The position numbers and the translations under genes are program-made. Under the pieces are notes generated by a model, which saw only the letters and a list, made by a program, of their open reading frames with translations, was not told the DNA's origin and searched no databases. 64,000 nucleotides of DNA from a virus, in the IMG/VR virus record IMGVR_UViG_3300036863_000086, positions 1-64,000 of that record; one strand, 5' to 3'. Shown here piece by piece: positions 4,580-63,430 of the stretch (its first letter is position 1; the number at the start of each line of letters is the position of its first letter).

Positions 4580-4592
4580 ACGAGGTGCGCAA

Positions 4593-5992: not shown

Positions 5993-5996
5993 CAAA

Positions 5997-6259: not shown

Positions 6260-6481
6260 CTATTTCTTTGCTGGTACAAGCGGCGTGCCATCATTCGCCT
6301 TGGGGTTATTTACTGGTGTGGTAAAGAACCTGTGGACAACAGCGCTAGAGACAACCAGAACGCCAGTTGCAATTTCTGCTGACGTTGTTGGCGAAAGGTC
6401 AAACCCAAAGCGAGTAGCAAGCCCAGTCACAAGAACGAGCACCAGTTGTGTAAGAACTGGGTTATTCTTTACTGTGTTCAT
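6260..6481 (-). CDS. holin-like membrane protein
   Basis: 73 aa, two hydrophobic helices, C-terminal TPV.NP motif. Confidence 0.65.
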   Translation of the reverse strand: MNTVKNNPVLTQLVLVLVTGLATRFGFDLSPTTSAEIATGVLVVSSAVVHRFFTTPVNNPKANDGTPLVPAKK

Positions 6482-42082: not shown

Positions 42083-42319
42083 CTAGGCTTCTGCATTGAC
42101 AGGAAGCTCATGGCGAGCAATTGCTGCATTTGCCCACATCATCGCGTCTTCAAGACTGGTCACAGCGAGACTCTTCTCACGGCAATCACCAATTTCTTCG
42201 TTCAGCCATAGTGCGAATTCTAAAAGTTTTGCGCGCACGTGTTCATGGACTATCTTCTTTTGGTCATCTGGCACATGGTACTTAAACCGATTTTTCAAGT
42301 CGACAAGTTCCATCGCCAC
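42083..42319 (-). CDS. Acb2/Tad1-like helical hairpin protein (candidate anti-defence sponge)
   Basis: RF.YH.P...R......A........REKSLA.T.LE.AMMWANAAIAR. Confidence 0.6.
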   Translation of the reverse strand: MAMELVDLKNRFKYHVPDDQKKIVHEHVRAKLLEFALWLNEEIGDCREKSLAVTSLEDAMMWANAAIARHELPVNAEA

Positions 42320-44023: not shown

Positions 44024-44153
44024 GGGGTTCCCTCCCTTCTATTTGTAAAGCGCAAAACTCGCTTCTACTCTTCAACTTCCAGAGCGTCCCACCTTCCCAG
44101 TTATACTGCCATACGTCGTGCGATCTGGCGAGTTACTGTTCCTTATATAGCAA

Positions 44154-44744
44154 AGCCTGGCCGGAGATGAAATCCGTACACTGCGTGCGAGCCATCATAG
44201 AAGTGAAAACCATGGCACCGAGTGCGAGCCATTGGCTGTGTGAATTCCCATTTGCATCGTGCGAGCCATTTAGAACGTGAAATCCAAGCATATCGTGCGA
44301 GCCAAGATAATTGCGAAATCCATCCATCTCGTGCGAGCCAAGGTAATATGTGCAACCCAAATCATGCGTGCGAGTCATTGAGCGAATGCAACCCATCGCC
44401 TAGCGTACGAGCCATTGCTTACTGTGAAACCCAGGTGTAGCGTGCGAGCCAAGGTATGTATGAAACCCAAGCTAAAGGTGCGAGCCAGTATCGTTGGTGC
44501 AACCCCAAGTGTAGCGTGCGAGCCAAGGTAATGTGTGAAACCCAAGTGTAGCGTGCGTTAGCCGCAAGAACGATGAAATCCGTCCATCTCGTGCGAGCCA
44601 AACAGAGCGTGAAATCCAAGTTTACCGTGCGAGCCATTGGATCGTGTGAAGCCCTAAGCAATGGTGCGAGCCGTTATACCCGTGAAAACCAAATGGAGGT
44701 GCGAGTCAAAGATAAAGTGAAGCCCAGAATCAAGGTACGAGCCA
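44154..44744 (+). repeat. TIGR-like dual-repeat guide array 1 (about 16 units of 36-37 nt)
   Basis: Alternating TGCGAGCCA and TGAAAYCCA repeats separated by variable 9(-10) nt spacers. Confidence 0.9.
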
Positions 44745-44761
44745 AACTCCAAGGAGTTGCA

Positions 44762-45592
44762 GTGACGACAACAGAGCAAGGAATTGTCGTTCCAACGTTG
44801 CCAGAGATCGAAACGCTGGAGCGGAAAATTCGCACAACAGCAGCACAGCTTCCGCCAGAGGAAGCACGACTGCTGGTGCTGCTGTACTACCAATTGCAAG
44901 AACACCGGATCGCCACCGGTAACCAGGCAAAAAGCGGTGGTGACAACCCAATCCTGATGCACTATCACCAGCAGCTCTCTTCACTGGAACGCAGCCTACC
45001 GCCGCTGCTCGGCAAATGGGCACAGTCCCAAACTGCTGGACAGTGGTCCCTGTCACAGGTCGGCGTCGGTCCTGTTATGGCCGCAGGTCTGCTCGCGCAT
45101 ATCGACATTGTCAAATTCCCTTCGGTGTCACACCTGTGGTCATTCGCTGGCCAGAACCCACTTGCAAAATGGGGGAAAGGCCAGAAGCGGCCGTGGAACG
45201 CACAACTCAAGGTGCTGGTCTGGAAAATCGGCGACTCATTTGTCAAGCTCAACAAGCACCCTGACTGCTACTACGGTCATATCTACGCGAATCGCAAGGC
45301 GATCGAAGTCTCTCGCAATGAGCACGGTGCGTTTGCGGAGCAGGCAGCAGAGATTCTTGAGGTTCGTAAAATCAAGGACGAGCGGACGCTGTCCTTCTAC
45401 AAGGCCGGCAAGCTGCCACCGGGGCACATCGATATGCGCGCTCGGCGTTACGCTTCCAAGCGGTTCCTCTCACACTATTTCGTCGTTGCGTATGAGGCAG
45501 CGCACGGCGAGCCTGCTCCTCGTCCATATGTAGAAACAGTGCTCGGGCACACCGACATCGACGCACCGCCAAACTGGCCATTGACCAAGTAG
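44762..45592 (+). CDS. tasA: TasA-like Nop-domain / IS110 C-terminal-like RNA-binding protein, no nuclease domain (276 aa)
   Basis: YYQLQEHRIATGNQ coiled coil, GVGPVMAAGLLAHID...SHLWSFAG, WNAQLK..W.IG.SF.K, Y..IY...K, HIDMRARRY..K.FL; AAGGAG RBS before GTG 44762; flanked by dual-repeat arrays. Confidence 0.8.
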   Translation: MTTTEQGIVVPTLPEIETLERKIRTTAAQLPPEEARLLVLLYYQLQEHRIATGNQAKSGGDNPILMHYHQQLSSLERSLPPLLGKWAQSQTAGQWSLSQVGVGPVMAAGLLAHIDIVKFPSVSHLWSFAGQNPLAKWGKGQKRPWNAQLKVLVWKIGDSFVKLNKHPDCYYGHIYANRKAIEVSRNEHGAFAEQAAEILEVRKIKDERTLSFYKAGKLPPGHIDMRARRYASKRFLSHYFVVAYEAAHGEPAPRPYVETVLGHTDIDAPPNWPLTK

Positions 45593-45604
45593 CAATTAAT
45601 TACT

Positions 45605-46295
45605 TGCCAAATGGTGATCGTGAAACCCATATCCTTCGTGCGAGCCAAGAACGTAATGAAACCCAAATCGTAGGTGCGAGCCTCTATAAGGGTGAAACCC
45701 ATAATTCCTGTGCGAGCCATGTCGCGCTGAAACCCGAGCGGTATGTGCGAGCCCGTCTGATCGTGAAACCCATATCATGCGTGCGAGCCATAGCAGCTAT
45801 GAAACCCATGCCCTTTGTGCGAGCCTCTATGAGGGTGAAATCCGCAATCACTGTGCGAGCCACCAGCAAAGTGCAAATCCGTACTTCATGTGCGAGCTAC
45901 AGGTTTTAGTGCAACCCAATATAGTCGTGCGAGCCACTACAGAGGCGAAACCCATACTCCAGGTGCGAGCCATTGCAGTCATGAAACCCATGCCTCTTGT
46001 GCGAGCCACCGTGGTTCGGTGAAATCCGTACGTCGAGTGCAAGCCAAGACGTGTATGAAACCCTGATGTAGCGTGCGAGCCGGAACACAGGTGAAACCCT
46101 ATGGCTCAGTGCGAGCCATACTTTCTGTGAATCCCAATCCATGCGTGCGAGCCATTGTCTTCGTGAAGCCCAAGCATTCAGTGCGAGCCATCAACAGTAA
46201 TGAAACCCAAATTAGGCGTGCGAGTCCAAGCATAGGGTGAAGTCCGTAGCCTTGGTGCGAGCCAAATTCTCAGTGAAACCCATAATGTTCGTGCG
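45605..46295 (+). repeat. TIGR-like dual-repeat guide array 2 (about 19 units)
   Basis: Same 36-nt architecture; ends exactly at TGCG. Confidence 0.9.
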
Positions 46296-46338
46296 TTTTC
46301 ACCCAAAACATGCCCAAATTCGTCGAAACTAGGAGGAA

Positions 46339-46557
46339 ATGTCACTATTTGCTGACCTAACATACCTGCGTCGCAGCCGACATATTTTCGTCGACATGCG
46401 TGGCGGGACATCGCACACCTACTTCGGCGAGGTTTCCCAGGAGCGCGGGCTTCTTGTTATAACAACTCGAACAGGGTTCTTTGGGCTACGACGGCAAATT
46501 ACAAAAATCCCACACACCTCCATCGAATCCTGGTCCTACTGGACCACCCCGTATTGA
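46339..46557 (+). CDS. hypothetical protein (inter-array cargo)
   Basis: AGGAGG RBS. Confidence 0.65.
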   Translation: MSLFADLTYLRRSRHIFVDMRGGTSHTYFGEVSQERGLLVITTRTGFFGLRRQITKIPHTSIESWSYWTTPY

Positions 46558-46569
46558 GGAGGAGGAGAA

Positions 46570-46794
46570 GTGTTCGAAGGCCCAATCAAGAAATTGGAAA
46601 CAATACTCGACAAAACATCGAAAGAGATCAACGAGGGAAAATACTGGGAATATATCGTTGATACCATAGGGCGCCCAGAAGCTCTCCAACCACTCCTCAC
46701 CTCACGCGGTAAGGATCGTTGGGAACTTGTCAGCGCGGTCAACGACACACTGTTTTTCAAGCGCCCAATGCAAAAAGGGGCAAAGAATTCATGA
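46570..46794 (+). CDS. DUF4177-like small protein
   Basis: WEY.......L...G...WELVS......FFKRP; GGAGG RBS. Confidence 0.6.
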   Translation: MFEGPIKKLETILDKTSKEINEGKYWEYIVDTIGRPEALQPLLTSRGKDRWELVSAVNDTLFFKRPMQKGAKNS

Positions 46795-47036
46795 CCACAG
46801 GCACCATGAAGACGATGGATCAGTCTGGTGACACCGAAATCAAGTGGGACCGCAGCGATCCAGACTCAATTGCAATCGCTCGGGAAGCATTTAATGAGGC
46901 TACTCAGCGCCGTTCGGAAGGCGGCAAGGGCTATCTGGCGTATCGCGTTGAGCGTGGTGGTAAGGGTGCAGTCATTCGTGACTTCGATCCTGCCGCCGAG
47001 CGGATCATCCTTGCGCCGCCTATGGCCGGTGGTTAA
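46791..47036 (+). CDS. 81-aa protein ending in C-terminal diglycine (PPMAGG)
   Basis: ATGA overlap; MD.SGD...WD...GYLAY...FDP.A..IIL.PP.AGG. Confidence 0.7.
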   Translation: MTTGTMKTMDQSGDTEIKWDRSDPDSIAIAREAFNEATQRRSEGGKGYLAYRVERGGKGAVIRDFDPAAERIILAPPMAGG

Positions 47037-47049
47037 TTCAGAGGAATAT

Positions 47050-47610
47050 ATGCCGTACCGCGTCTATGCTTCCGAAGCGACAGCCACCACAATTAACATG
47101 AGCGCAACAACAAACACCACCACAGATCCTGGCAACTATTACATCTACTTCAATACCGGCTATCGATACCCGAGCGCCGAGGAACTACGTCGTCTGCAAC
47201 CACAAGCATACGAATTTGCCAACGCCACGCAACAGTACCGGCGTTGGCAACAGCAACAGACAGCGCATGAACGACAGGCAGCACGTGAACATGAGAAGGA
47301 AGCACAGGAAGCACAAAAGCGTGCAGAAGTGCTCCTGCTCTCCGTTCTCGACGCAAGGCAAGCTGAACAGTGGGCAACGACCCACGAAGTCGACGTGGTC
47401 GGCTCAGAAGGGCACAACTACCGTCTGACTCGCGCTCGTCAAGGTGGCGTATTCCGCCTTGGGTCACGAAACCGTCGTACGCATTCGCTGTGTATCCACC
47501 ACGACTACGCAATTCCTATTGAGGACCAAATCGCAGCGCAGAAGCTCCAGATCGAAACGGACGAAGCCGAATTCTGCCGTATCGCAAATGAGAGCCCAGT
47601 ACTCGCGTAA
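47050..47610 (+). CDS. hypothetical protein, partner of the diglycine protein
   Basis: GAGGA RBS; V.GS.G..YR...LCIH...P..D...AQKL.IETDE..F...AN. Confidence 0.7.
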   Translation: MPYRVYASEATATTINMSATTNTTTDPGNYYIYFNTGYRYPSAEELRRLQPQAYEFANATQQYRRWQQQQTAHERQAAREHEKEAQEAQKRAEVLLLSVLDARQAEQWATTHEVDVVGSEGHNYRLTRARQGGVFRLGSRNRRTHSLCIHHDYAIPIEDQIAAQKLQIETDEAEFCRIANESPVLA

Positions 47611-47616
47611 CAACTT

Positions 47617-49578
47617 AGCCATTGCTAGCGGTGAAGCCCATGCCTTTTGTGCGAGCCACTAGCCCATGTTAAGCACATACCGTGCGTGCGAGCTATAGGT
47701 AGCTGTGAAGCCCATGTCTTTTGTGCGAGCCACCATCCTAGTTAATAACAAAGTGTACGTGCGAGCCACCACGAGCGTCAAATCCCATAGGGGCCATGCG
47801 AGCCAATAATGCGTGTGAAATCCGTCGACAAAGTGCGAGCCAAGATACTTATGAAACCCGTACCATCTGTGCAAGCCTCTGAATGCGGTTGAAACCATAC
47901 CATCTGTGCGAGCCGTACCCTTAGTGAAATCCTCTTCGGCGGTGCGAGCCACACTCATTTGTGAAACCCCAGTACAACGTGCGAGCTACAAATGGTGTGA
48001 AACCCAAATTTCCCGTGCGAGCCACTCCCCGTTGTGCAAGCCCGAGATGTGAATGCGAGCCATTGAAACGGTAAAATCCAATTCCTTGGTGCGAGCCATT
48101 GAACCCGTAAAATCCGTATCTCTCGTGAAGTCCGGGTTGCATGTGCGAGCCACAAGTTCAGTGAAATCCATGTAGTACGTGCGAGCCACTCCCTGTTGTG
48201 CAACCCGGAGGTGCAGTGCGAGCCACGGCAATGCATGTAACCCAAATTTCCAGTGCGAGCCATATCGTTTGTGCAACCCAATAGAACCGTGCGAGCCATT
48301 GAATCTGAGAAACCCAATTCCTTGGTGCGAGCCATGTTCAGTGCGAAATCCAAGTGCAACGTGCGCGCCAGTCTGCGTGTGAAACCCATACCATGTGTGC
48401 GAGCCATTACAGTGAGTAAAATCCACTATCTTGGTGCGAGTCATTACAGTGAGTGAACCCCAATGGATCTGTGCGAGCCATTATTCCCGTGAAATCCAAT
48501 ATCTCAGTGCGGGCCAAGATGCTTGCGAAACCCATAAAGTCAGTGCGAGCCATTGCCGTCATGAAATCCATTGACTCAGTGCGAGCCATTACTTCCGTGA
48601 AATCCGTACGTAGCGTGCGAGCCATCCCAGTCGTGAAGTCCATAGTTGGTCTGCGAGTCAAGCTAAGCGTGCAACCCAACATGGCCGTGCGAGCCATTGT
48701 CGTCATGAAAACCAGGGTTAACGTGCGAGCCATTGAAACAGTGAAACCAGTCCTTAACGCGCATCCCATTACGTAAGCCAACAGCCGCGTGACATCCATA
48801 CTACTCGTGCGAGCCAGCTCCTAAGTGAAAACCGTACCCCTTGTGCGCACGCCTATAGTGAAACCCTGTTCGATGTGCGAGCCGTTGTTATGGTGAAATC
48901 CCTACCACATGTGCGAGCCAAAGCAATTGTGCAACCCAATGTCGGTCTGCGAGCCAAAAGCAAGGTGAAAACCGTGCCCTATAGTGCGAGCCATGTCTGA
49001 AATGAAATCCACAGGGGTCTGTGCGAGCCACAGGCAATGGTGCAAACCGAAGTCGAAGTGCGAGCCCCGCGCGACAGTGAAATCCATATAAGCGGTGCGA
49101 GCCGTACCATTAGTGAAATCCCATTCGTCCGATGCGAGCCATGCGATATGCGAAACCCATAGCAGGCATGCGAGCCAACGGCAGGGCGAAAACCGTACCC
49201 CATAGTGCGTGCATAAGCCATGTCTTCTCTGAAATCCAGGGATCTCGTGCGGGCCAAGGTGTGTGATGAAACCGACCCCAACGTGCGAGCCATTAGCAAG
49301 GTGAAACCCGTACTCCTGGTGCGAGCCATTACTTCCGTGAAATCCTCCGTCCTTGGTGCGAGCCATCGTCAAGGTGAACTCCATTCCAATTGTGCAAGCC
49401 ATTCAAGCAGTGAAAACCCACCCCAAGAGTGCGAGCCATATTGCGCGTGAAACCCGCCGCCCTTCGTGCGAGCCACATCGTCGGTGAAACCCAAGCATAT
49501 TGTGCGAGCCAACGAGCGTCTGCAATCCATATTGCGGGTGCGAGCCAGTCACAACGTTCAACCCGTGGGCATTGTGCG
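47617..49578 (+). repeat. TIGR-like dual-repeat guide array 3 (about 53 units)
   Basis: Starts AGCCA, ends TGCG; 36-nt period with a few irregular units. Confidence 0.9.
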
Positions 49579-49621
49579 TCCATCAATCCAAAAACAGCGT
49601 TCGAAAGGGCTACAAGTTAAA

Positions 49622-49981
49622 ATGGTTGACTCCACCGCCCAACACCTCCTTGCCACCGCCGTTGGCAAGCTCCCATCGTCCCAACTCTACCTCGAAGCCT
49701 TTCTCCTCGACCGTAAAGTTGTCGGTGACCAATACTCGCGCTCCCGCTGTCCCATCGCCAACTACCTTGCATCGGAACTCCGCATTTCTCCCCGAGAACG
49801 AGTTTGGGTTGGTTGGAGCACCGTTTGCATCGTCCGTCGCCGTCCCTTCCTCCCCGCAAAAACCATCGCGCTCGTGAACCTCACGCTCGGCCACAGGGTC
49901 TTCATCCGCAACTTTGATGGTGGTTTCTACCCGTCGCTCATTGCCACGTCCCGTACCGCGTACCCACGAATCCCACAGTAA
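49622..49981 (+). CDS. hypothetical protein (paralog of 50769..51110)
   Basis: FL....V.G......CPIA.YL..EL...FI..FD.G.YP.L. Confidence 0.6.
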   Translation: MVDSTAQHLLATAVGKLPSSQLYLEAFLLDRKVVGDQYSRSRCPIANYLASELRISPRERVWVGWSTVCIVRRRPFLPAKTIALVNLTLGHRVFIRNFDGGFYPSLIATSRTAYPRIPQ

Positions 49982-49996: not shown

Positions 49997-50734
49997 ATGG
50001 TCGTTGCTGCCAGAAATTGGGAGACGAATGCTGCCTTCTGGATTCGTATCATTCGAGAAAGGCTTGATCCCTACCGCACAGAACTGACTGATGATGCCGT
50101 GCTCAACGAGGTTGGTCCTGCCGAGGGACGGAGAATTCTCGATGCAGGCTGCGGTGAGGGATATATGTCGCGGCTGCTCGCACATCGAGGTGCCAGTGTT
50201 GTAGGAATCGATTCTTGCCAAGCATTGGTTCATGCAGCCCAAGATCACACCACAGAAGGTTTGAGTATTAGCTACGAGGTGGGCGACGTTGGAGCACTGC
50301 CACTAGCTAATACTCAATTCGATATTATCGTATGCAATCACCTCATCAACGACCTTCCCGATCCAGCTATCCCGTTCCAAGAGTTTGCTCGCGTCCTAAA
50401 ACCACGCGGGCGGCTTGTTATCCTTATGCTTCACCCGTGCTTCTCTATCCCCAGATCGACGGAACAGCGATCCAATGGAGGACTGATCAGTTCGGAGTAC
50501 TTTAGGGTGCGACGGATTGAAAAGCACTTCGAAATTGGCGGGGTTACATCGCCCACAACGGTCGTTGTATGGATAAGATCCATAGAGTCTTATAGTGAGC
50601 TGTTGTTCGGTGCCGGCTTCACTATAACTGGACTGCAAGAGCCACGCCCAACAGAGCAGTTACTGCAAGACCCTTGGTGGCGTGTGAGCTTCTCCCAACC
50701 TCGTTTTTTGTTGATAACTGCCAAGAGACGTTGA
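49997..50734 (+). CDS. class I SAM-dependent methyltransferase
   Basis: ILDAGCGEG, GID, FDII, E..RVLKPRGRL; AAGGA RBS. Confidence 0.9.
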   Translation: MVVAARNWETNAAFWIRIIRERLDPYRTELTDDAVLNEVGPAEGRRILDAGCGEGYMSRLLAHRGASVVGIDSCQALVHAAQDHTTEGLSISYEVGDVGALPLANTQFDIIVCNHLINDLPDPAIPFQEFARVLKPRGRLVILMLHPCFSIPRSTEQRSNGGLISSEYFRVRRIEKHFEIGGVTSPTTVVVWIRSIESYSELLFGAGFTITGLQEPRPTEQLLQDPWWRVSFSQPRFLLITAKRR

Positions 50735-51653: not shown

Positions 51654-51764
51654 ATGGACATGTTTCCCAAACTGCTTCACATGCTCGTGACGGTCGGGTC
51701 GGGCGGATGGCTCACTCTGACCGTGTGGGGCGAGTACGCCAGACTGTGGATCTCGGCTAGGTAG
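51654..51764 (+). CDS. small hydrophobic peptide (36 aa)
   Basis: Read manually; AAGGAGG RBS. Confidence 0.45.
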   Translation: MDMFPKLLHMLVTVGSGGWLTLTVWGEYARLWISAR

Positions 51765-51780
51765 GACAAGGCGCCTATAC

Positions 51781-51814
51781 CGGGCAGGCCGGGCAGGCCG
51801 GGCAGGCCGGGCAG
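51781..51814. repeat. 9-bp tandem repeat (CGGGCAGGC) x3.8
   Basis: Directly visible. Confidence 0.85.
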
Positions 51815-51890
51815 AGGGTTCGATCCCCTCGATAGGCACGAGCAGGACCGCGACGGCCGACCCGTCGCGGAGTCGGACAAGGAGGTCGAA

Positions 51891-54215: not shown

Positions 54216-54321
54216 AATGCACATAGGCGCGTATTGACTGGCCATTTCGAGCAGTGAAAACCAAAGCATCAATTACTTATGGTAATGGTGCAAAGCTCGA
54301 AAAAAGAAAAGAGAAACCGAA

Positions 54322-54630
54322 ATGGCTGTTGAGATCAGGTACACGGACGACGAGGGCAACCTGCTGTTCACCACGCGGGACATGACTGTGGTGGAGAACT
54401 TCCAGAAGGCCGAGAAGAAGGTCGCGGCGCTGGCGGAGGCCGAGAAGATCCTGGCGCGGCGTGAGCGCCTGGTCAGGGAAGCGCTCGACACGCTGGCCAA
54501 GCTGCGGAAGGACGTCACCGAGGGCCTGCCGGACGGCGCGCGGGTTGCCAAGTCTGGCGACACCTACGCGATCACGTTCGAGCCGGAGGACAGCGCCAGC
54601 GCGCCGAGCGAGAACGGCGCGGCCAGCTAG
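54322..54630 (+). CDS. early hypothetical protein
   Basis: High-GC codon bias; enclosed by IR pair. Confidence 0.75.
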   Translation: MAVEIRYTDDEGNLLFTTRDMTVVENFQKAEKKVAALAEAEKILARRERLVREALDTLAKLRKDVTEGLPDGARVAKSGDTYAITFEPEDSASAPSENGAAS

Positions 54631-54796
54631 AACGCCGAGATCGGCGACAACTTCATACCGGGCGGCCGGCCCCAGCACCACGTAACACCGTAGCAACCGC
54701 AACAAAGCGAAATGGCCAGCCAATTCGCGCCTATGTGCAAAGTACGCGAGTTTTTGAAACGTGGATACATGCTTCCTAAGCAGGAAAAGCGATTTT

Positions 54797-54816
54797 GCCG
54801 CGCAAGCGGCTTTTTT
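54797..54816 (+). terminator. intrinsic terminator
   Basis: GCCGC-GCAA-GCGGC-TTTTTT. Confidence 0.7.
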
Positions 54817-54903
54817 GCTTTTCCAAGGGAAAGCAGGGAATTGAGAGTTTCTCGCGTCCACTCCAACAAAAAACAACTCCAATTGGTAAGTGGAGTGATC
54901 CAG

Positions 54904-55080
54904 ATGCGAAAAACCCTGTCCGACCTGTTTCTGTGGGCTGGTTGGACACTGGCCGATAAGGCCAGCCCAACAGAAACTCCAGCTTCCATGGACTACAGGG
55001 AAATGCTGCCGTTGTCCGAGCGGCATTTCTACGTCCAGCCGGTCGGGTTCCAGCCAAGCAAAAAGCGGGTGTCGGCATGA
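54904..55080 (+). CDS. early hypothetical protein
   Basis: GGAG RBS, ATG 54904. Confidence 0.55.
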   Translation: MRKTLSDLFLWAGWTLADKASPTETPASMDYREMLPLSERHFYVQPVGFQPSKKRVSA

Positions 55081-55295
55081 GACTCGCGGTTGCTGTGGTT
55101 GTGGTCGGTTGGTTGCTCGTGTTCGGCGCGATCGCGCTGCACACGGACTGGTCGGAAACGTCGGCTCCAGCAACGCCAACGTACGTCGTCCAGAACAACG
55201 AGGTCCAGACTCCTGTGGGAATGTGCCGAACGGAAGATTCCTGTTCGGTCGATTTCCACGGTGGTCAGTACACGATCCGGCAGGTGACGCCATGA
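55077..55295 (+). CDS. small membrane/secreted protein
   Basis: N-terminal TM helix; ATGA overlap. Confidence 0.6.
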   Translation: MRLAVAVVVVGWLLVFGAIALHTDWSETSAPATPTYVVQNNEVQTPVGMCRTEDSCSVDFHGGQYTIRQVTP

Positions 55296-55390
55296 CGCCG
55301 GAACAGCAGATTTTCGGGATTTACCTGATCCTGGTGATCGTGATACTCCAGCGGAAACTCTGGCATGACTTTGGCAAGCACGACACCTAG
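55292..55390 (+). CDS. small membrane peptide (32 aa)
   Basis: ATGA overlap; hydrophobic core. Confidence 0.45.
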   Translation: MTPEQQIFGIYLILVIVILQRKLWHDFGKHDT

Positions 55391-55506
55391 AGAGACCAAC
55401 AACGTGAGGAACTTTCAATTCCCTGCTTTCCCACGCTTGGGAGCATGTTTTGGCGAGTCATTTCCAACCTCTGGAAGAAATTCCAGGGAAAAAAGGAAGT
55501 GACAAG

Positions 55507-55962
55507 ATGAAAGCCAAGTGGTTTTACGACGTGGAGGTCGTGACCAATGGTGCTGTTTCGTCGCACCAGACGTTCACCTCCGACTGCTTCGACGGGGAAA
55601 CAGACCCGATGGCGGAATTCATCGCGGACGTGGAACACTTCACGAGCGGGTCCAGCAAGCCAACGGAGGTTTTCGTCCAGTTCCACGAGCACGAGCCGTT
55701 TTCCGATGGCGAGGATGTCTGTGGTCAGTTTGAAACGGACGGGCACCCGACCTATTCGTGGAACATGGAAAACGACGTTTCCAAGGTTCCGCAGAAGGTT
55801 CATGTGGTCGACTGGACTGGCGAGGATTTCCCGCATGGCGAGGAATGGTCGCCAGGGTTCGCGCCGTACGTGTTTCGCTGGACGTTCGATGACGACGCGG
55901 ACGTGGGGTTTCCGTGGTTTCCGCCGTCCATGACGTTTCGGTGGGATCGGCGCCATGACTGA
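55507..55962 (+). CDS. early hypothetical protein
   Basis: AAGGA RBS before ATG 55507. Confidence 0.65.
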   Translation: MKAKWFYDVEVVTNGAVSSHQTFTSDCFDGETDPMAEFIADVEHFTSGSSKPTEVFVQFHEHEPFSDGEDVCGQFETDGHPTYSWNMENDVSKVPQKVHVVDWTGEDFPHGEEWSPGFAPYVFRWTFDDDADVGFPWFPPSMTFRWDRRHD

Positions 55963-56137
55963 ACTTTCCACCAACCTGGAAACCGGCGAAACCTACAAAG
56001 CGAGGTTTCGGCGTCCTGATGGCGAGCTGGAAACGAAAGAATTCTCCGGCGCCGATTGGGATGCGTGCTGGAAGATGGCTGTTGACCATGCAGCCGCTTC
56101 GAACAGCAAACTCCAGATGTTCAAGATCCAGAAGTAA
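55955..56137 (+). CDS. early hypothetical protein
   Basis: Coupled ORF inside IR pair. Confidence 0.6.
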   Translation: MTELSTNLETGETYKARFRRPDGELETKEFSGADWDACWKMAVDHAAASNSKLQMFKIQK

Positions 56138-56241
56138 CGACGACGGTAACGATGCGAAATGACCCGCCAAAACATGCTCTCAAGTTTGCTTGGAAGCCTC
56201 TTGAATGAGCTGCTGCGCGAAATTCCAAGAAGGAGAACGAC

Positions 56242-56637
56242 ATGGGAATTTCCGCAAGGATGATGCCCGACGTGTTTTCCGAGAACGGGAAAACCTACCA
56301 CGAGCACCTTGTTTCGGTGCATGCGAGCGAGCGGTCCAACTACGAAATCCGGTGTTCTTGTGGGCACTTGGGTTTCGTCGCGTCGGTGTCCGACGTGTTC
56401 GCGGCAAACTGCGCCCTTGACCACGTCAAGGAAATGCAGCCGGACTCCGGCTATCAGGAAGCCGTTCGATCTGCTGTAACCGAGTATCACGCCAGGAAAG
56501 ACTTCGAGCAGGACTTTTCGGAGAAGATGATCCTCCTGAACAGAGGACTCCACCCCTGCAAGAAAGTTGCAGATGGCCAGCACTATTTTTCGGTGGTGAC
56601 TGGCATCTGCCACGCCTGCGGCGCGCTGGAGAAGTAA
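56242..56637 (+). CDS. early hypothetical protein with Cys/His motifs
   Basis: AAGGAG RBS; CSCG..H, CHACG. Confidence 0.7.
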   Translation: MGISARMMPDVFSENGKTYHEHLVSVHASERSNYEIRCSCGHLGFVASVSDVFAANCALDHVKEMQPDSGYQEAVRSAVTEYHARKDFEQDFSEKMILLNRGLHPCKKVADGQHYFSVVTGICHACGALEK

Positions 56638-56748
56638 CTCCAAACGCGCAGTAACTCATTCATGAGGGTTCCAAGCGTTGCTTAGGAAGCTGTAGAAAGC
56701 TGGAAATGAGGGTTTCTCGCTCCAACTGGTAACGATGCAAAGGAATGC

Positions 56749-56922
56749 ATGATGGCCGAGAACCCTGAGAACCCCAAGGATGGTTTGGCGTCGATTGTCG
56801 ACGTGAAGAACTTCTTCGAGTACGAGAACATCTCGAAGTTCCGCGCCGACTGGCAGAAGTTGTCCGACGTTGACAAGGTGCAGCTCCGGCTGGGCATCGG
56901 CGAGGGTACCCTGACCTACTGA
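56749..56922 (+). CDS. early hypothetical protein (57 aa)
   Basis: Read manually; AAGGA RBS; ...DVKNFF...FRADW..LSD.DK.QLR.GI..GTLTY. Confidence 0.65.
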   Translation: MMAENPENPKDGLASIVDVKNFFEYENISKFRADWQKLSDVDKVQLRLGIGEGTLTY

Positions 56923-57054
56923 GTTTTTCCACGCGAGGAACCTTCATTTCCAGCTTTCTACTGCTCAAGTAGCAAGTTAACGGGATTGTCAGTGTGCGGG
57001 ATACATGCATTGGTTGGCTCCTCCACGAACAACGAACAACGAGGAGAACAGCCA

Positions 57055-58461
57055 ATGGCAAACCTACTATTTCCCCGCAGCAAGCCTCCGTCATTTTCTC
57101 GTGCCAACCCAACCACGATGGACCTCGAAAGGATCATCGAAGAAATCGCGGACGATCCTTTCCAGATGGACACCGGCATGCGGATCATGATGAAGCGGAA
57201 GAAGGAGTTCAACAACGAGCTGGCCGCAAAACTGACCGGGATCGCGCTCAACCCCGTTTCCAAGGCGTACCTGGAAAACCGCCTCGACGATATCTGGTCC
57301 GCGTCGTCAGGGAGGATCGTCCTTGGCAATGCCGGAACCACGACCATGCCGGAAGTCATCATCGGCAGCGGTTTCCACGCTGCCGTGTACGCCGCGATCC
57401 GGGTCCAGGCGGGATTTCCCAAGCCATTCGTGCTCGAACGAGGAAAGCGCGCTGGCGGCGTGTTTGCCGTTCCTGGGCCAGCGTTCTTCCTGAATTCGCG
57501 GAACCGCCCAGGCGGAATCGGGCTGGCAGGAGATTCCGGCGCAAACCCAAACTACCTGCCCGGCGCACCGATCCAGACCGCGAACATCTCCAGCGGCGAC
57601 TACCAGACCAACGCGGACATGGCGCTCGTGATCCGGCTGACACTCGCCAAGTACGCGAACGTGCTCACGGAGTTTCCTGTCAGCGAAGTCGATTACTTCG
57701 CCGAGCGATACACACTCCTTTCGACAGGTGGTCGGAAACTCCAAGCGTCTCGAATCATCGACGCGCGCGGACTCGGCGACCCGCTCGGCAAGACCACGGC
57801 GAACGGAACAACCATCCTGACGTTTCCGCAGTTCATGGAAAGGATGGGCAGCGAAACCTGGCCGCTGCGGGATATTCGTCGTGCGGCAGTGCTCGGCAGC
57901 GGCGATGCTGCGCGGTGTTCGCTGGAAGCGTTGCTCGGAATTGGTCCACTTCCGGCAATGTCCATTCCTGCGCTCGACATGGTCGATCGGGTCGACGCCT
58001 ACGGGGAACTTCCCGACACGATGGAATCATGGTGCGACCGGGAACGTGGCCGGTACAACAAAATCGGCCGATTCCTCCGGCCGGATCGGTTCGGCATCAA
58101 GCGGTTGAACGTGTACGCGGATGGCGAGCGGCCGTCGCCAGTTTCCATCCCGAACGAAACGGTGCTGGTGAACGGCCGCAGCTACGACCTCGTCATTCTC
58201 GCAACCGGAAATCGTGAGGAGTCCGTTCCCGGCCTGGGAACGTCCAGCGACTTCGAACGCTACAACGTTAGCGACGTTGCAGTCGCCACGCGGAGTTACT
58301 ACTCCGGTGGCGACCTTTTCCGAGTTGGACCGCACGCGCGGCTCGGGTTTTCTCGGCTGGAGCGGAATGCCGGCGTCGCGGAAATCCCCAACAACGCGGT
58401 CTCGATGTTCCGGCTGGCCAGCAAAACCGCCACGCTCGCAGCAACACTTCCCGGCATCTGA
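57055..58461 (+). CDS. FAD/NAD(P)-dependent oxidoreductase (two Rossmann motifs, monooxygenase-like)
   Basis: VIIGSGFHAA...VLER...GG; AVLGSGDAA; YDLVILATG; GAGGAG RBS. Confidence 0.7.
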   Translation: MANLLFPRSKPPSFSRANPTTMDLERIIEEIADDPFQMDTGMRIMMKRKKEFNNELAAKLTGIALNPVSKAYLENRLDDIWSASSGRIVLGNAGTTTMPEVIIGSGFHAAVYAAIRVQAGFPKPFVLERGKRAGGVFAVPGPAFFLNSRNRPGGIGLAGDSGANPNYLPGAPIQTANISSGDYQTNADMALVIRLTLAKYANVLTEFPVSEVDYFAERYTLLSTGGRKLQASRIIDARGLGDPLGKTTANGTTILTFPQFMERMGSETWPLRDIRRAAVLGSGDAARCSLEALLGIGPLPAMSIPALDMVDRVDAYGELPDTMESWCDRERGRYNKIGRFLRPDRFGIKRLNVYADGERPSPVSIPNETVLVNGRSYDLVILATGNREESVPGLGTSSDFERYNVSDVAVATRSYYSGGDLFRVGPHARLGFSRLERNAGVAEIPNNAVSMFRLASKTATLAATLPGI

Positions 58462-58740
58462 ATCACTACCGGGTAACTGGTGCCAGCCAATGCTTGCATC
58501 CTTCACAACGACAGTCCCGTTTACTTGCTACTTGAGCGCTGGACTTTTCAGATGGACCACAGAACAACGCGATATGTGCTGCGCTCTGCGTTTGAGGAAC
58601 GTCAAGGTTGGAGCAACCATAAAAGACACTCCACTTGCCAAGGTTCCCGTTCTGTGGTCCTTTTGAGAAGTCCAGCTTGTTGTTTGGCGTTTGAAAGTGG
58701 ATTGTTTCGTCCGATGGTAAGAACAACAAAGGATGGAACA

Positions 58741-58941
58741 ATGAGCGAGTACCAGCGAAAGATTTCGGTCGATGACCTGCATGTCGGGACGTTCGTGAAA
58801 GTGCGCGACAACTTCGGCGGCTTGTGGTCGGCGGAAGTCATCGGATTCACCAGGAACGGAACGATCGAGTTCATCGTTTCTGGTGACGACAAGGTTCGTC
58901 GTGGCACGCTGACCACGATTGCAGAAATCGTGCAGCCATGA
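58741..58941 (+). CDS. small SH3-like beta protein
   Basis: AAGGA RBS; DL.VG..V.V. Confidence 0.55.
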   Translation: MSEYQRKISVDDLHVGTFVKVRDNFGGLWSAEVIGFTRNGTIEFIVSGDDKVRRGTLTTIAEIVQP

Positions 58942-59180
58942 CCACCATGCTGCATCGTAGGGTCGCTATGCAGAGCGTAGCGATCAAGGCGATGTTTTCC
59001 AAGGCCGAGATGCTCGAACTTCCACGGCGCGCGTTACTGGCGATGTTGAACGAGAACCTTCCGCTCGTTGATCCGAGCGATAGCAAGAAAGTTCGACTCG
59101 CTCGGATCGCCACCATTCAGGATCGAGTGAACCTCGCGCGATACCGCGCTGGCCTGAAAAGGTGGGAGCAACCACGATGA
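58938..59180 (+). CDS. hypothetical protein (tandem paralog 1)
   Basis: MFSKAEMLELPRRALLAMLNEN...QDR...LARY. Confidence 0.6.
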   Translation: MTTMLHRRVAMQSVAIKAMFSKAEMLELPRRALLAMLNENLPLVDPSDSKKVRLARIATIQDRVNLARYRAGLKRWEQPR

Positions 59181-59425
59181 TGCTCGTCGAAGAATTCCTC
59201 AAGTTGCTCGACGAGAAGATCGCCGAGCAGGACGTGAAGATTTTTTGGATGTTTTCCAAGGCCGAGATTTTCGAGCTGAATCGGCGTGAGCTGCTGGCGC
59301 TGTTGAACGAAAACGATCCAAAAGCGGAAGTCCAGGCTGTCCTGCAAGATCGGCTGGATGACGTGGCCGGCCGGGCGGATCTCGCGCGATATCTCGCCGA
59401 GCGAAAAGAAGCTGGTGCGGCATGA
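59177..59425 (+). CDS. hypothetical protein (tandem paralog 2)
   Basis: MFSKAEIFELNRRELLALLNEN...QDR...LARY. Confidence 0.6.
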   Translation: MMLVEEFLKLLDEKIAEQDVKIFWMFSKAEIFELNRRELLALLNENDPKAEVQAVLQDRLDDVAGRADLARYLAERKEAGAA

Positions 59426-59578
59426 TGCTGCCAGTCGCAGTCATCAAGGAAATCGAGTCCACCTACGCACTGCTCTGGGCTGACTGAATCAACCTCGAAA
59501 CAATCCACTTCCACGCGCCAAACAACAATCCAAAAGTATGTTGGCGGGTTTTTCCATGTCTGGTAAGGGAAGTGCGAC

Positions 59579-60061
59579 ATGGAGTTTCGCAAGGGTCCAA
59601 CACTGGACGAATTCTGTGAAATCGTCCAGAAGATTTCCGACGAGCGCTACGACAGCAACGTGATCGTCGGCGACTCGGAAACACTGTCCAAGAACGGAAC
59701 AACCTTCCGGGCGACGTTGCGCGTCAAGGATTCCAAGAAATTCGGCGCGAGAACATCATCGCGCGGCCGGCACACGCCAGCGGCAAGCTGGGAAGCGTTC
59801 CGCGATGTTCTCCGCGAGGTGTTCGACCGCTGGCCGAACACCTACGTTTCTTCGATGCTCGTGTTCATGCTGGGACTGTACGATCCCTGCGAGCATCGCA
59901 AGGCGAGCGGCGAACCGTATCGGCGCCACAAGGAACGGCATCGCCGGCGCGGCTACAACGGAAAAGCACAATTCGAGGAAATGTACCCTGAGACGGCCGC
60001 CGTCAATTGGGGTTCCCAGATATATTGGGCATGCCTCCCTGATCTTTCCATCGAGCGGTGA
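59579..60061 (+). CDS. early hypothetical protein
   Basis: AAGGGA RBS; inside IR pair. Confidence 0.65.
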   Translation: MEFRKGPTLDEFCEIVQKISDERYDSNVIVGDSETLSKNGTTFRATLRVKDSKKFGARTSSRGRHTPAASWEAFRDVLREVFDRWPNTYVSSMLVFMLGLYDPCEHRKASGEPYRRHKERHRRRGYNGKAQFEEMYPETAAVNWGSQIYWACLPDLSIER

Positions 60062-60065
60062 CACG

Positions 60066-60398
60066 ATGCCGGCTATCGTGACCACAGTGAGGGAAATCCC
60101 AACCGCGCCGTACTACGTTCTATCCAACGACAGATTCATGAGCGGTTGGGGCCGGGCGCATACATCGGGCGCGTTTGGAAATCCGTATCCCGACAGAGGG
60201 GCGTTGACCAACACCATCATCCTGCCGTGCGAAAACTGGACGGAAGCGCTGATTGTCAAGGAAAACGCCGAACGTCGTACCGATCAGACGAGAGTTCGGA
60301 TCGTCGTGAACAAACCGCGACTCCGTTCTGAGCACGTCTATTCGCTCCTGACAAGACTAACCGCAGAGTGGTGGTTCCAGCCGGGGGCGTTCAAGTAA
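60066..60398 (+). CDS. early hypothetical protein
   Basis: YYV..D.FMSGWG.A motif; ATG 60066. Confidence 0.65.
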   Translation: MPAIVTTVREIPTAPYYVLSNDRFMSGWGRAHTSGAFGNPYPDRGALTNTIILPCENWTEALIVKENAERRTDQTRVRIVVNKPRLRSEHVYSLLTRLTAEWWFQPGAFK

Positions 60399-60440
60399 CC
60401 AACGAAAAACCCGCCAACTTACTTTTGGAAGATCCGAGTA

Positions 60441-60947
60441 TCGTGCAATTAATTGGGAACAGTAACGGCGAGAATCACGATAGCTGAGAGCCCGTAAAAG
60501 GGAATATACCAATATCGTGATTAGGGCACGATCGCCCTGGGCCGGTCGGTTCAATCCGGCTGGATCGCAACCAAACAGCGGAAGAACAGAGCCAGCTTAA
60601 CCGCTGGCATCCGGTTACTGTTCCCAATTGATTGTACGACAAATTAGAATTGAGATAGGGAACGCACCCGGACGGCATAACCCTGCTAGGTTTGCTAAGG
60701 GTCCGCCGTAGCAGCGGAAACGGGATATAGAGGGACCGCCCTATCTCAAAACCACGCGCCTAGCTGCAAAACGGCCTCGGGCCGGATCTGGTTCTCAGCG
60801 TGGGTTCTAGGGAAGCACGAATAGGAGCTGGTAATAAGGCTTCCCAGCTAACTTTCGCAGGATCTAAGGACCACAGGGATGCAGGTCTACAACCGCATTT
60901 CGACAAAACCCAAATGGTGAGGTTTCGTCGTTATCCCTGTGGTCCTT
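60441..60947 (+). ncRNA. cluster of multi-branched structured non-coding elements
   Basis: Closing stems 60441-66/60614-39, 60650-60/60739-49, 60866-80/60933-47; T-loop-like GGTTCAATCC. Confidence 0.6.
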
Positions 60948-60983
60948 TGATTCTACGACGAGACAACGAACAAGGGTAAACAG

Positions 60984-61203: not shown

Positions 61204-61275
61204 GCGCCTGTACCTTAATGGAAAGAGGGATAGTTTCCTAAACTATTTGTGCAGGTTCGATTCCTGCCAGGCGCG
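61204..61275 (+). tRNA. tRNA-Arg(CCT)
   Basis: GCGCCTG/CAGGCGC; ATAGT-TTCCTAA-ACTAT; GTTCGATTC. Confidence 0.85.
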
Positions 61276-61276
61276 C

Positions 61277-61419
61277 AAGAAACTTGGGCTAGCCGCGTAC
61301 TCCACTACGGTAATGGGAGAGCTATACGAAAGTGCCCGGCAACCTGAAAGCGCCTTACGGTGTATCCACCTTACGGTGCATCCATGTCGACGCCGGTAAG
61401 CCTTCCGCCCAAGTTTCTT
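61277..61419 (+). ncRNA. structured non-coding element between tRNAs
   Basis: 13-bp closing stem AAGAAACTTGGGC/GCCCAAGTTTCTT. Confidence 0.45.
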
Positions 61420-61425
61420 TTTCAT

Positions 61426-61503
61426 GGCGAGAGTAGCTTAATTAGGTAAAGCGCTTGCTTGTGGCGCAAGTTATTGCCGGTTCAAATCCGGTCTCTCGCC
61501 CCA
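61426..61503 (+). tRNA. tRNA-His(GTG) with G-1 and encoded CCA
   Basis: CTTGC-TTGTGGC-GCAAG; 8-bp acceptor. Confidence 0.9.
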
Positions 61504-61504
61504 A

Positions 61505-61582
61505 TGGTCGGTAGCTTAATTCACTCGGCAAAGCAGCGGTCTCCAAAACCGCGAGATGGGGGTTCGAGTCCCTTCCGACCAG
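61505..61582 (+). tRNA. tRNA-Trp(CCA)
   Basis: GCGGT-CTCCAAA-ACCGC; GTTCGAGTC. Confidence 0.9.
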
Positions 61583-61586
61583 CTAC

Positions 61587-61661
61587 GGCGTGGTAGCTCA
61601 GTTTGGTTAGAGTGCTGCCCTGTCAAGGCAGAGGTCGCGGGTCCAAATCCCGTCCACGCCG
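61587..61661 (+). tRNA. tRNA-Asp(GTC)
   Basis: CTGCC-CTGTCAA-GGCAG; variant T loop TCCAAAT. Confidence 0.88.
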
Positions 61662-61684
61662 CAATTGTGGGGAAAGGACAATCA

Positions 61685-61876
61685 GTGTCAAAGCTAAAAG
61701 TTACTGTAACTGGAATTCTAGATGTTCCAGAAGATCAGCTAGAACCGGCATACGAAGCATCCTCAATCCAAGAAGCCGCCAAAAACTTAGTCGCCTGGTA
61801 TAAAGATGGCTCAGCAGACCTTTTTGCTGACCTATCCGTGGTGGATGAGTTGAAGGTAACTGTCGAGCCGGTATAA
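61685..61876 (+). CDS. hypothetical protein (63 aa)
   Basis: GAAAGGA RBS before GTG 61685. Confidence 0.6.
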   Translation: MSKLKVTVTGILDVPEDQLEPAYEASSIQEAAKNLVAWYKDGSADLFADLSVVDELKVTVEPV

Positions 61877-61977
61877 TTCGGAGTTGCCAGACCCGAGTCT
61901 CCATACCTGCGTACGAGGATTTCTGGAGATAAGCCGAAAACCTAAAGCGCTACGGGAAAGTAGGCATCTGGCACCAA

Positions 61978-62051
61978 GCGCCATTCTGCTAAACGGATGA
62001 GGCTACCACTCTCTCACGGTGGAGGTAGGAGTTCGAATCTCCTATGGCGCG
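61978..62051 (+). tRNA. tRNA-Glu(CTC)
   Basis: CCACT-CTCTCAC-GGTGG; GTTCGAATC. Confidence 0.85.
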
Positions 62052-62082
62052 CGAAATTGTTGGACTGGAAGGAAGTTGAACA

Positions 62083-62214
62083 ATGGATAAGATAGTGCAA
62101 ATCGAGATCGAATATGACGACGGCAGTACGGCTTTCTGGACAATCAAGGAAGACGACGAACGGCTGGCAAAAGTCGAGGAAATCCTCGGAACGCCAGATC
62201 AGCAGAATCTCTAG
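62083..62214 (+). CDS. small acidic protein (43 aa)
   Basis: Read manually; AAGGA RBS. Confidence 0.55.
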   Translation: MDKIVQIEIEYDDGSTAFWTIKEDDERLAKVEEILGTPDQQNL

Positions 62215-62220
62215 CAACAT

Positions 62221-62293
62221 GCGCGGTTCGGCTAATGGTTTAGGCTATCAGACTTTCAATCTGATGATGCGGGTTCGAATCCCGTACTGCGCA
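62221..62293 (+). tRNA. tRNA-Glu(TTC)
   Basis: TCAGA-CTTTCAA-TCTGA; GTTCGAATC. Confidence 0.9.
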
Positions 62294-62650
62294 CAATGGG
62301 GCCGGACGACCGGATAAGCATAGGAACGAGCGCGCTAAAGTTTTGGGTCGGTTGGGCGCGAACGTGAGATCGTCATTCCTATCGCCCCAGATTTTTGCTG
62401 AGAACACAGGCCCGCCGGGTACGCGCAACGCCAGTGTGGTTCAACGGTTGCATTCTGGAACGATGGACGTGGTTAGGGACCGACATCGTGCCGATTGGTC
62501 GCGTACTGCGCCCCCTTTACGGAAACTTCTAGATCCATATCCGCGCGGATTTAGAAAGTCCATGAAGGACCGAGCCTTATCATGGGAGGGTTAAATCGAG
62601 ATGGCGGCATAACTCCCTCCCACCCTTTTCGGAAACCCAAGGATAGCGAA

Positions 62651-62926
62651 GTGCAGATCATGTTTCACTACATGGATAAGCGACGGAACCACGAAATCGC
62701 CGACGCTCCATGGCGAAAGTTGGACTTCGTTCCCAACAACATGCTGCGCGATCTTGACCATTGGCACGATGCAGAAACATTTCCATTCTACGACCCGGAC
62801 CTAGATGCCAGAGACATCGCCGACGTGCCACATGGTCATTGGATCGCGCACAAGCACGGCAGATACCAAGAACACGCGCATTACGTTCTCTGCACGGAAG
62901 ACCATGAAAGTGAAGGAGCTAAATGA
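62651..62926 (+). CDS. His/Asp-rich hypothetical protein
   Basis: AAGGA RBS; start 62651 or 62660. Confidence 0.55.
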   Translation: MQIMFHYMDKRRNHEIADAPWRKLDFVPNNMLRDLDHWHDAETFPFYDPDLDARDIADVPHGHWIAHKHGRYQEHAHYVLCTEDHESEGAK

Positions 62927-63014
62927 ATTACGATCCGTACGATGACGACGAGCCAATTGACAGCGGCGACGAAGTTGGTCCATAGCCATCACGAAAGTTT
63001 TTAAAAGGTGAGTG

Positions 63015-63320
63015 ATGGCGACTGTTCGAATCAGCGAAAAGGATCTCCGAGATCCAAGATTCAAGCGCCTGCGAAACATGGTCAAAGAAGCAGGCGGGCT
63101 TGATGATGAGAATGACGAGGTTGTCGACAAGGAAGAATTTGGCGATCGACTTGTCCCACGAGAACTGACACTTTCGGAGCGCATCGAAAGCATTACGTTT
63201 GTGAAGCAATTCTCGGGCTACAGCAAAGAGCAAGTTGATGCGTTTCTCGATGATGTCGGTCGGCACGTCGAAAAGATGGAAAAAGAAATCCGTCGGCTTC
63301 GTCGGCGACTCGGAAGGTAA
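63015..63320 (+). CDS. DivIVA-domain-containing protein
   Basis: ITFVKQFSGYSKEQVDAFLDDV...E...LR matches DivIVA N-terminal F....GY...EVD.FLD. Confidence 0.7.
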   Translation: MATVRISEKDLRDPRFKRLRNMVKEAGGLDDENDEVVDKEEFGDRLVPRELTLSERIESITFVKQFSGYSKEQVDAFLDDVGRHVEKMEKEIRRLRRRLGR

Positions 63321-63325
63321 CAAAA

Positions 63326-63397
63326 CCGGGTGTCATTCAACGGTTAGGATCTCTGCCTTCCAAGCAGATGATGCGGGTTCGATTCCCGTCACCCGGT
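63326..63397 (+). tRNA. tRNA-Gly(TCC)
   Basis: TCTGC-CTTCCAA-GCAGA; GTTCGATTC. Confidence 0.9.
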
Positions 63398-63430
63398 CTA
63401 CGTTTTTCCGTAACCGAAACGAGGGTAAGG

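Follow-up and report, generated by a model that had tools for sequence, protein, structure and literature searches.

The locus described here occupies positions 44154-49578 of the window, the 64-kb stretch of 64,000 nucleotides (nt) that was analysed, which forms the first part of IMG/VR virus record IMGVR_UViG_3300036863_000086; window and genome coordinates coincide up to position 64,000. It consists of three arrays of short alternating repeats (A1, A2 and A3) placed on the plus strand around tasA, a gene for a 276-amino-acid (aa) protein without a nuclease domain. This is a genuine dual-repeat TIGR-TasA system, a large and oddly arranged member of a family published in 2025-2026. The record is linear, 72,476 nt long, with a completeness estimated by CheckV at 82%, and it encodes a DNA polymerase, a tape measure protein, a major head protein, a portal, a large terminase and an endolysin, a gene set that marks the virus as a tailed phage. 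The arrays near tasA have the packaging module on one side and the early region on the other. A scan of the 20 larger open reading frames (ORFs) revealed no integrase. Parts of the locus are present in soil-metagenome DNA, in seven runs drawn from seven studies. Compared with cultured phages (50,697 phage records), the major capsid protein reaches no more than 31% identity, and within the same collection the only Tas homologue belongs to Salicola phage CGphi29.

The first-pass annotation, made from the letters alone, had described three arrays with an 18+18-nt alternation of two repeats, both of the TG...CCA type, and had counted about 16, 19 and 53 units by hand. Both observations were borne out by parses at 44154-49578 in which half-units were called by dynamic programming with position weights, giving 88 units near tasA (half-unit counts in Table 1); an edge-anchored parse of the same arrays resolved 73 regular units, 35-38 nt in length, besides 8 irregular blocks. 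Specifically, an edge repeat, UGCGAGCCA, alternates with a loop repeat, UGAAAYCCA (minor form UGCAACCCA), with one repeat every 18-19 nt, an edge-to-edge spacing mostly of 36-37 nt and a strict edge-loop-edge-loop order in the parses. These arrays are far from what chance would produce: of 67 exact copies of the 8-mer TGCGAGCC on the plus strand of the window, 66 lie inside 44100-49600, and the minus strand has none. Across 71 edge repeats, the successive positions are conserved as U 71, G 69, C 71, G 71, A 69, G 71, C 66, C 68 and A 64, and the base preceding the UG is G in 65 of them. Across 73 loop repeats, the initial U and G are each kept in 67, followed by an A-rich core and by C, C and A in 70, 72 and 49, respectively. 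Box D (UG) and box C (CCA) are near-invariant in the repeats, and the spacers are variable. An origin as CRISPR-Cas was rejected, in agreement with the earlier annotation: there are two alternating 9-nt repeats with 9-nt spacers instead of a single repeat of about 25-36 nt with spacers of like length, and the neighbouring ORFs, which alone were scanned, contain no Cas family.

The protein places the locus in the same family. The tasA reading frame is intact, and its GTG start lies 5 nt after AAGGAG. In phmmer searches against the PDB, TasA matches TasR (9mty_A, E 1.2e-16) and TasH (21kl_A, E 1.5e-12), as the first-pass assignment to the TasA form of TIGR-Tas would lead one to expect. The alignments begin at residue 119 of TasR and residue 134 of TasH, past their nuclease domains, and only about 20-40 residues precede the coiled coil of TasA, whose first modelled helix starts at residue 14; the short N-terminus and these alignment starts together define the nuclease-free TasA form. 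The Pfam scan of TasA returned no nuclease family, consistent with the earlier statement that DEDD/RuvC and HNH domains are missing from the 276-aa protein. Its single Pfam match, to Transposase_20 (residues 101-136, E 0.0014, 19.4 bits against a cut-off of 21.3), is below threshold and coincides with the GVGP...SHLWSFAG stretch, for which an IS110-like character had been noted. In PHROGs the protein falls into phrog_4285 (E 3.5e-42), a family labelled 'transposase'. An IS110-family transposase was nevertheless rejected, since the Transposase_20 match is partial and sub-cut-off, the N-terminal DEDD domain is missing and the fold matches to this family are weaker. The TasA family comprises 2141 proteins at E <= 0.001 among 3066 candidates; the closest homologues are 88% and 74% identical and the others at most 62%.

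The AF2 model of residues encoded at 44762-45592, built from an alignment of 37 homologues, is all-helical and of good quality (pLDDT 89.1, pTM 0.85). In Foldseek searches against the PDB, its best matches are ten TasH/TasR chains (E 3e-7 to 4e-6, TM 0.56-0.70; 22-27% identity over the structural alignments), and all matches listed with E <= 0.001 are TasH or TasR chains, which are Tas proteins with a Nop domain. IS110-family recombinases come next (E 0.007-0.04), with IS621 and ISCro4 at TM 0.38-0.47. Additionally, Y256 and H263 of TasA align in the phmmer alignment with Y289 and H296 of SpTasH, reported as the catalytic residues of pre-tigRNA processing (PMC13421893); in the 37 homologue sequences, H263 never varies and Y256 is kept in at least 90%. 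The Tyr/His processing pair is kept in TasA, and an activity that cuts the guide precursor is predicted from it. The loop that bears the pair (residues 257-264) is the low-confidence part of the model. A homodimer was modelled with a score of 0.53 against 0.31 for the best control, symmetric, with an interface at residues 22-82, agreement between runs in at least 62% of contacts and a partner pLDDT of at least 80. Among solved one-chain pairs, 20 of 30 reached the mark applied, as did 1 of 23 single chains; as similar complexes have already been solved, the score may reflect likeness only, not binding.

The first-pass account of three arrays with about 88 guides holds for the surroundings of tasA and is incomplete for the genome. 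About 40 more units lie beyond the end of the window, in distal arrays 21.6-26.6 kb from tasA (A4, S1, A5 and A6). The seven arrays comprise 256 half-units, or about 128 units, and cover 4,738 nt, all on the tasA strand; the commitment of 6.5% of the genome to this many guides points to strong selection for a broad repertoire. By comparison, edge 9-mers with at most one mismatch occupy 129 sites here and only 3-21 in each of 46 IMG/VR stretches with the identical repeat pair, which have no guide in common with the phage. The commonest exact periodic 8-mer is present in 93 copies (66 near tasA), against at most 43 in any of the 80 loci, taken with 10-kb flanks, that carry TasA relatives. In published work, the size of TIGR arrays is given as 'most often 5 to 15' units (PMC12045711), and the dual-repeat arrays of the TIGRFinder survey contain 15.9 guides on average (65,635 in 4,126). 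As described in PMC12045711 and preprint 10.64898/2026.09.09.750476, both surveys took at most 10 kb on each side of tas. The distal cassettes fall outside such flanks, which suggests that the surveys may undercount repertoires. A literature search, with the survey supplements outside its scope, found no paper on distal TIGR arrays or half-spacer reuse.

Table 1. Features of the TIGR-TasA locus and its surroundings (L082, the stretch beyond the window end; L082 5209 = genome 67209)
Feature	Position	Strand	Remarks
Array A1, 16 units	44154-44744	+	32 half-units, 1 weak
tasA, nuclease-free Tas protein (276 aa)	44762-45592	+	Coiled-coil hairpin (about residues 22-88) and Nop domain
Array A2, 19 units	45605-46295	+	37 half-units, 0 weak
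Four small ORFs between A2 and A3	46339-46557, 46570-46794, 46791-47036, 47050-47610	+	No family assignment
Array A3, about 53 units	47617-49578	+	107 half-units, 7 weak
Class I S-adenosylmethionine (SAM)-dependent methyltransferase	49997-50734	+	PF08241 Methyltransf_11, E 8.5e-23; 419 nt after A3
Array A4, about 31 units	Genome 67209-68366 (L082 5209-6366)	+	
Array S1, 1 unit	Genome 68735-68771; with stems 68719-68782 (L082 6719-6782)	+	
Array A5, 6 units	Genome 68864-69089; with stems 68852-69101 (L082 6852-7101)	+	
Array A6, 2 units	Genome 72159-72231; with stems 72148-72242 (L082 10148-10242)	+	
Variant loop repeats UUAA(A/C/U)(C/A)ACA	Window 47669, 47741; genome 67529, 67860, 67896, 67932, 68951, 68220		
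tRNA genes	Window 5920-6260, 51746-51839, 61204-63398; L082 2552-3514, 9468-9541	+	ARAGORN

Within the 114 well-formed edge-loop-edge guides found genome-wide, the inter-repeat lengths are 9+9 nt in 57 and 10+9 or 9+10 nt in 40. The first spacer base is mostly A or U, and the last is G in 70 of the 114 A-spacers and 82 of the 114 B-spacers, leaving about 8 freely varying positions per half-spacer. AAAY forms the core of the loop repeat, and the core of the edge repeat, CGAG, would permit a C-G pair by its letters alone; these positions are invariant, so covariation is unable to support the pair. A2 and A3 are each bounded on both sides by a truncated edge repeat, and A1 and A4 begin with one; A3 opens with AGCCA and closes with GUGCG. 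A3 also contains degenerate stretches at about 48757-48850 and at 49188-49220, and two consecutive loop repeats at 48089-48143. About eight copies of a variant loop repeat (Table 1) are without UG and CCA boxes and are often followed by an edge repeat with A instead of the usual G before the UG (AUGCGAGCC); two such units in A4 are near-duplicates of one another. Upstream of A1, no sigma-70-like site was found on the plus strand, a result that would be informative only for a known host. The identical edge and loop repeat pair is present in 25 stretches of metagenome-assembled genomes (MAGs; L129-L153) from lineages that include DPANN and other archaea, Patescibacteria, Planctomycetota, Bacteriovoracaceae and Smithella. 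This spread over very distant lineages indicates that the repeat sequence is conserved far outside the relatives of the phage, and is too wide for naming a host.

The most likely function of the system is guide-directed, non-cleaving DNA binding against host or rival elements. In the proposed mechanism, the arrays would be transcribed into a precursor, which TasA dimers would bind and cut inside each edge repeat, between GUGCG and AGCCA, yielding 36-nt guides. The two spacers of each guide would then pair with opposite strands of an 18-bp DNA site, and the nuclease-free complex would stay on the DNA, blocking transcription or replication without cutting. No cleavage is expected, because TasA is without a RuvC or HNH domain. 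Related activity has been reported for MbTasA: repression of a reporter and of a gene on the chromosome, and binding to target DNA in an electrophoretic mobility shift assay (Xu et al. 2026, preprint 10.64898/2026.09.09.750476). Since no guide matches the phage itself, the targets would lie outside it, on the host chromosome or on rival mobile elements. Taken together, a dual-repeat TIGR-TasA system of an uncultured tailed soil phage that binds targets outside the phage without cleaving them is the probable account of this locus.

Several points weigh against this account. The external location of the targets is read from a negative result in an 82%-complete record, and no search found a target. 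Across the genome, 16 of the 256 half-units score weakly, and parts of A3 and A4 are degenerate, so that some units may be non-functional. A simple scan found no terminator-like site on the plus strand at the ends of A2 or A3; A4 is followed by a stem without a T-run. No RNA run was found among the sequencing runs that hold the locus. In addition, the repression tests of a TasA protein used MbTasA, presented under the stem-loop results, and for the dual-repeat FpTasA the part of the published account drawn on here reports only the binding of 36-nt RNAs (PMC12045711).

The genes around the arrays raise the question of partners. Except for a sub-threshold HEPN_Toprim_N match (E 7e-4) in 47050-47610, the four ORFs between A2 and A3 have no Pfam or PHROG match. 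TasA could be a targeting module only, with a nuclease or modifying enzyme recruited in trans, and the methyltransferase after A3 would be a candidate for a fibrillarin-like role, given that box C/D ribonucleoproteins (RNPs) combine a Nop protein with a methyltransferase (PMC12045711); a free-standing HNH gene is also present at 4530-4961. However, homologues of the methyltransferase, of the four ORFs and of ORF 49622-49981 occur in none of 80 related tasA loci, whereas TasA is found in all 80. TasA is also without the N-terminal domain by which Nop5 holds fibrillarin, and the HNH gene is 40 kb away, which makes recruitment in trans improbable. The absence of a conserved neighbour in the 80 loci fits the published view of a single-protein system.

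The four-ORF segment looks like a variable insert and not a component of the system. A2 ends with GUGCG (46291-46295) and A3 starts with AGCCA (47617-47621), two halves that would make one edge repeat without the segment between them. In the contigs of another soil run, X2, there is no cover over 46344-47465, and a loose contig end continues array A2 past 46295, with no contig joining cleanly across. The 1.3-kb segment may be an insertion into a once-continuous array. On the other side of the locus, 1.8 kb from A1, a 78-aa ORF on the minus strand (42083-42319) matches the Acb2/Tad1 hairpin domain (PF24729, E 1.8e-19); its product is likely a sponge for cyclic-nucleotide immune signals, of predicted anti-CBASS or anti-Thoeris type. 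Weak homologues of this ORF are found in 2 of the 80 related tasA loci.

Target searches bear on where the guides act. The 18-mer search suggested in the first-pass annotation was carried out on the record itself and on related viral loci, and in neither did matches rise above controls. Single 18-mers are expected by chance many times in large collections and are too short for searching singly. The favoured target arrangement, spacerA followed by the reverse complement of spacerB, is our own derivation and follows from the reported 8-nt 3' overhang (PMC12045711); both strand arrangements were searched. In the 72.5-kb record outside the arrays, 104 guides gave no 18-nt site with at most 2 mismatches, and 111 guides gave no 16-nt core with 0 mismatches and gaps of 0-4. 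Self-match counts equalled those of wrong-orientation controls. Among related viral loci (1.62 Mb, 126 loci, at most 1 mismatch in 18), no target was found, and the controls gave one match each. Guides that bind the phage's own genome, timing gene expression or aiding integration, would be in line with the regulation of the viral life cycle, listed as a possible role in preprint 10.64898/2026.09.09.750476 and PMC12045711, and with the placement of the arrays between packaging module and early region. Such self-regulation is very unlikely in view of these searches, although about 18% of the genome is missing from the record by the CheckV estimate. An excess of 9-nt half-spacers complementary to the plus strand (78 against 57-60 +/- 8 in shuffles) does not help it, being evenly spread over the genome and absent at 8 nt (220 against 208). 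Natural targets and the gain of spacers are stated as open questions for TIGR-Tas in PMC12045711 and preprint 10.64898/2026.09.09.750476.

A further possibility is that RNA rather than DNA is the partner of the guides, for instance tRNA, rRNA or mRNA of the host or the phage, in the manner of box C/D guides. The phage carries 13 distinct tRNA genes by ARAGORN. All are on the plus strand, and most form a cluster at 61-65.5 kb that separates the main from the distal arrays; most of the 13 are in the same part of the genome as A4, S1, A5 and A6, and the stem-closed units resemble box C/D RNAs. Rfam matched no family to the arrays, its finds being tRNAs only, with one extra weak match at 61510-61576 and without the tRNA gene at 51746. 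RNA targeting is nonetheless highly improbable: TasR is reported to be inactive on RNA substrates (PMC12045711), and spacers show 2 antisense matches of 8 nt to the tRNAs of the phage (13 genes), against about 3.3 expected.

The guide repertoire appears to be in turnover. Half-spacer reuse was scored as pairs within 1 mismatch of 8 and compared with 200 shuffles. Pairs of A with A numbered 14 (shuffle mean 3.6, maximum 10) and pairs of B with B 23 (mean 4.3, maximum 10), in contrast to 7 pairs of A with B (mean 7.1, maximum 15), and the partner half differs in 35 of the 37 same-position pairs. Summed over 36 other loci, the same pattern gives 17 against 6.4 for A-A, 28 against 6.0 for B-B and 6 against 7.6 for A-B. 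This reuse at the same position with new partners suggests that recombination at repeats gives rise to new guides. In four other soil runs, contigs vary from the window by gains and losses of whole units: 36-nt skips occur at 44292/44329 in X2, X3 and X4 and at 47837/47874 in X4, a 72-nt skip at 46041/46114 in X2, X3 and X4, and extra units at 46264/46255 in X2-X4 and at 44705/44694 in X3 and X4. The spacer at 44601-44608 is replaced in other-run contigs, and one inserted unit is made of half-spacers found elsewhere in the arrays. Over the same runs tasA is 98-99% identical (6 of 836 letters differ in X2 and 9 of 508 in X3). Read from contigs and not from reads, this turnover speaks of presence and not of frequency. 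We infer that the repertoire changes as whole units and half-units are gained, lost and reshuffled in register at repeats. That the arrays are a decaying or selfish repeat region, persisting by duplication and no longer serving as guides, is hardly credible: degenerate stretches in A3 and A4, reused half-spacers and the lack of targets found would fit it, but the arrays, which occupy 6.5% of a compact phage genome, all lie on one strand and are found again in several soil samples.

The small distal arrays are built differently. S1, A5 and A6 are framed by perfect inverted repeats of 11, 12 and 11 nt that adjoin the outer half-edge repeats, and in A6 the inverted repeat continues, at 85% complementarity, to a length of 27 nt; when array flanks were paired at random 2,600 times, the longest complementary stretch measured 10 nt. 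No flanking inverted repeat of 9 nt or more was found among the array clusters of the 46 IMG/VR stretches with the identical repeat pair, and a looser genome-wide scan for closing stems did no better than random flank motifs. The unit of S1 is the least certain, since its 5' box C is degenerate. In the early region (54218-60958), back-to-back inverted repeats of 26-59 nt and 83-96% complementarity each enclose a gene or gene group, a closed-cassette layout that possibly serves RNA processing or stability. As inverted repeats close gene cassettes as well, the stems of the arrays may be a genome-wide RNA-processing habit and not a TIGR feature.

In isolation, the stem cassettes resemble stem-loop guides that work with a protein of the dual-repeat type. 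A more speculative view, which we regard as doubtful although worth stating, is that one TasA serves two kinds of guide genes, long arrays cut through the Tyr/His pair and stem cassettes of 1, 2 and 6 units released by a stem-processing route that apparently also acts on the gene cassettes of the phage. The system would then be a living intermediate between dual-repeat and stem-loop forms. If this is true, it would imply, together with half-spacer reuse and unit turnover, that repertoires grow with no acquisition machine of the Cas1 type, in-register recombination at repeats combining half-guides into new 18-nt specificities. Variation in the population, half-spacer reuse and distal stem-closed cassettes bear on how TIGR arrays evolve and leave the kind of system unchanged.

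Among known systems, the closest is FpTIGR of Flavonifractor plautii (Faure et al., Science 2025, PMC12045711), which is described as having a solo Nop-domain Tas, two repeats that start with UG and end with CCA, spacers of about 9 nt and a 36-nt unit. Like the present locus, dual-repeat TIGR-TasA systems of this type are reported to have arrays on both sides of tas and on its strand, truncated edge ends and carriage by phages. The phage described here differs in the number of units, about 88 near tasA and about 128 genome-wide against the published array sizes given above, as well as in its four distal arrays and in the stem closure of the three small ones. TaTasR (PDB 9mty) and SpTasH of Salicola phage CGphi29 (9w03, 9w04, 21kl) share the Nop domain and coiled coil with TasA, by sequence and by predicted fold. 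SpTasH also shares the Tyr/His processing pair, and the repeats published for TaTasR are built alike, with the UG...CCA form, a loop repeat rich in A and, possibly, one more C-G pair within the edge repeat. Unlike either protein, the present TasA has no RuvC or HNH domain.

Stem-loop TIGR systems (PlTasA, BlTasA, MbTasA and CsTasR; Faure 2025, Xu et al. 2026) are described as having palindromic stems in place of edge repeats, a likeness to the stem-closed cassettes of the phage. Here, in contrast, the stems enclose one to six ordinary dual-repeat units instead of every unit, and TasA has the Y/H loop, which according to preprint 10.64898/2026.09.09.750476 is missing from all stem-loop clades. 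More distant relatives are the IS110-family recombinases (IS621, ISCro4) and the archaeal Nop5 box C/D RNPs, which have a Nop-type RNA-binding domain in common with TasA. Compared with the former, the TasA system has no DEDD/RuvC-like catalytic domain, bridge RNA or transposon ends; compared with the latter, it is without the fibrillarin-binding N-terminal domain and without a K-turn/L7Ae partner.

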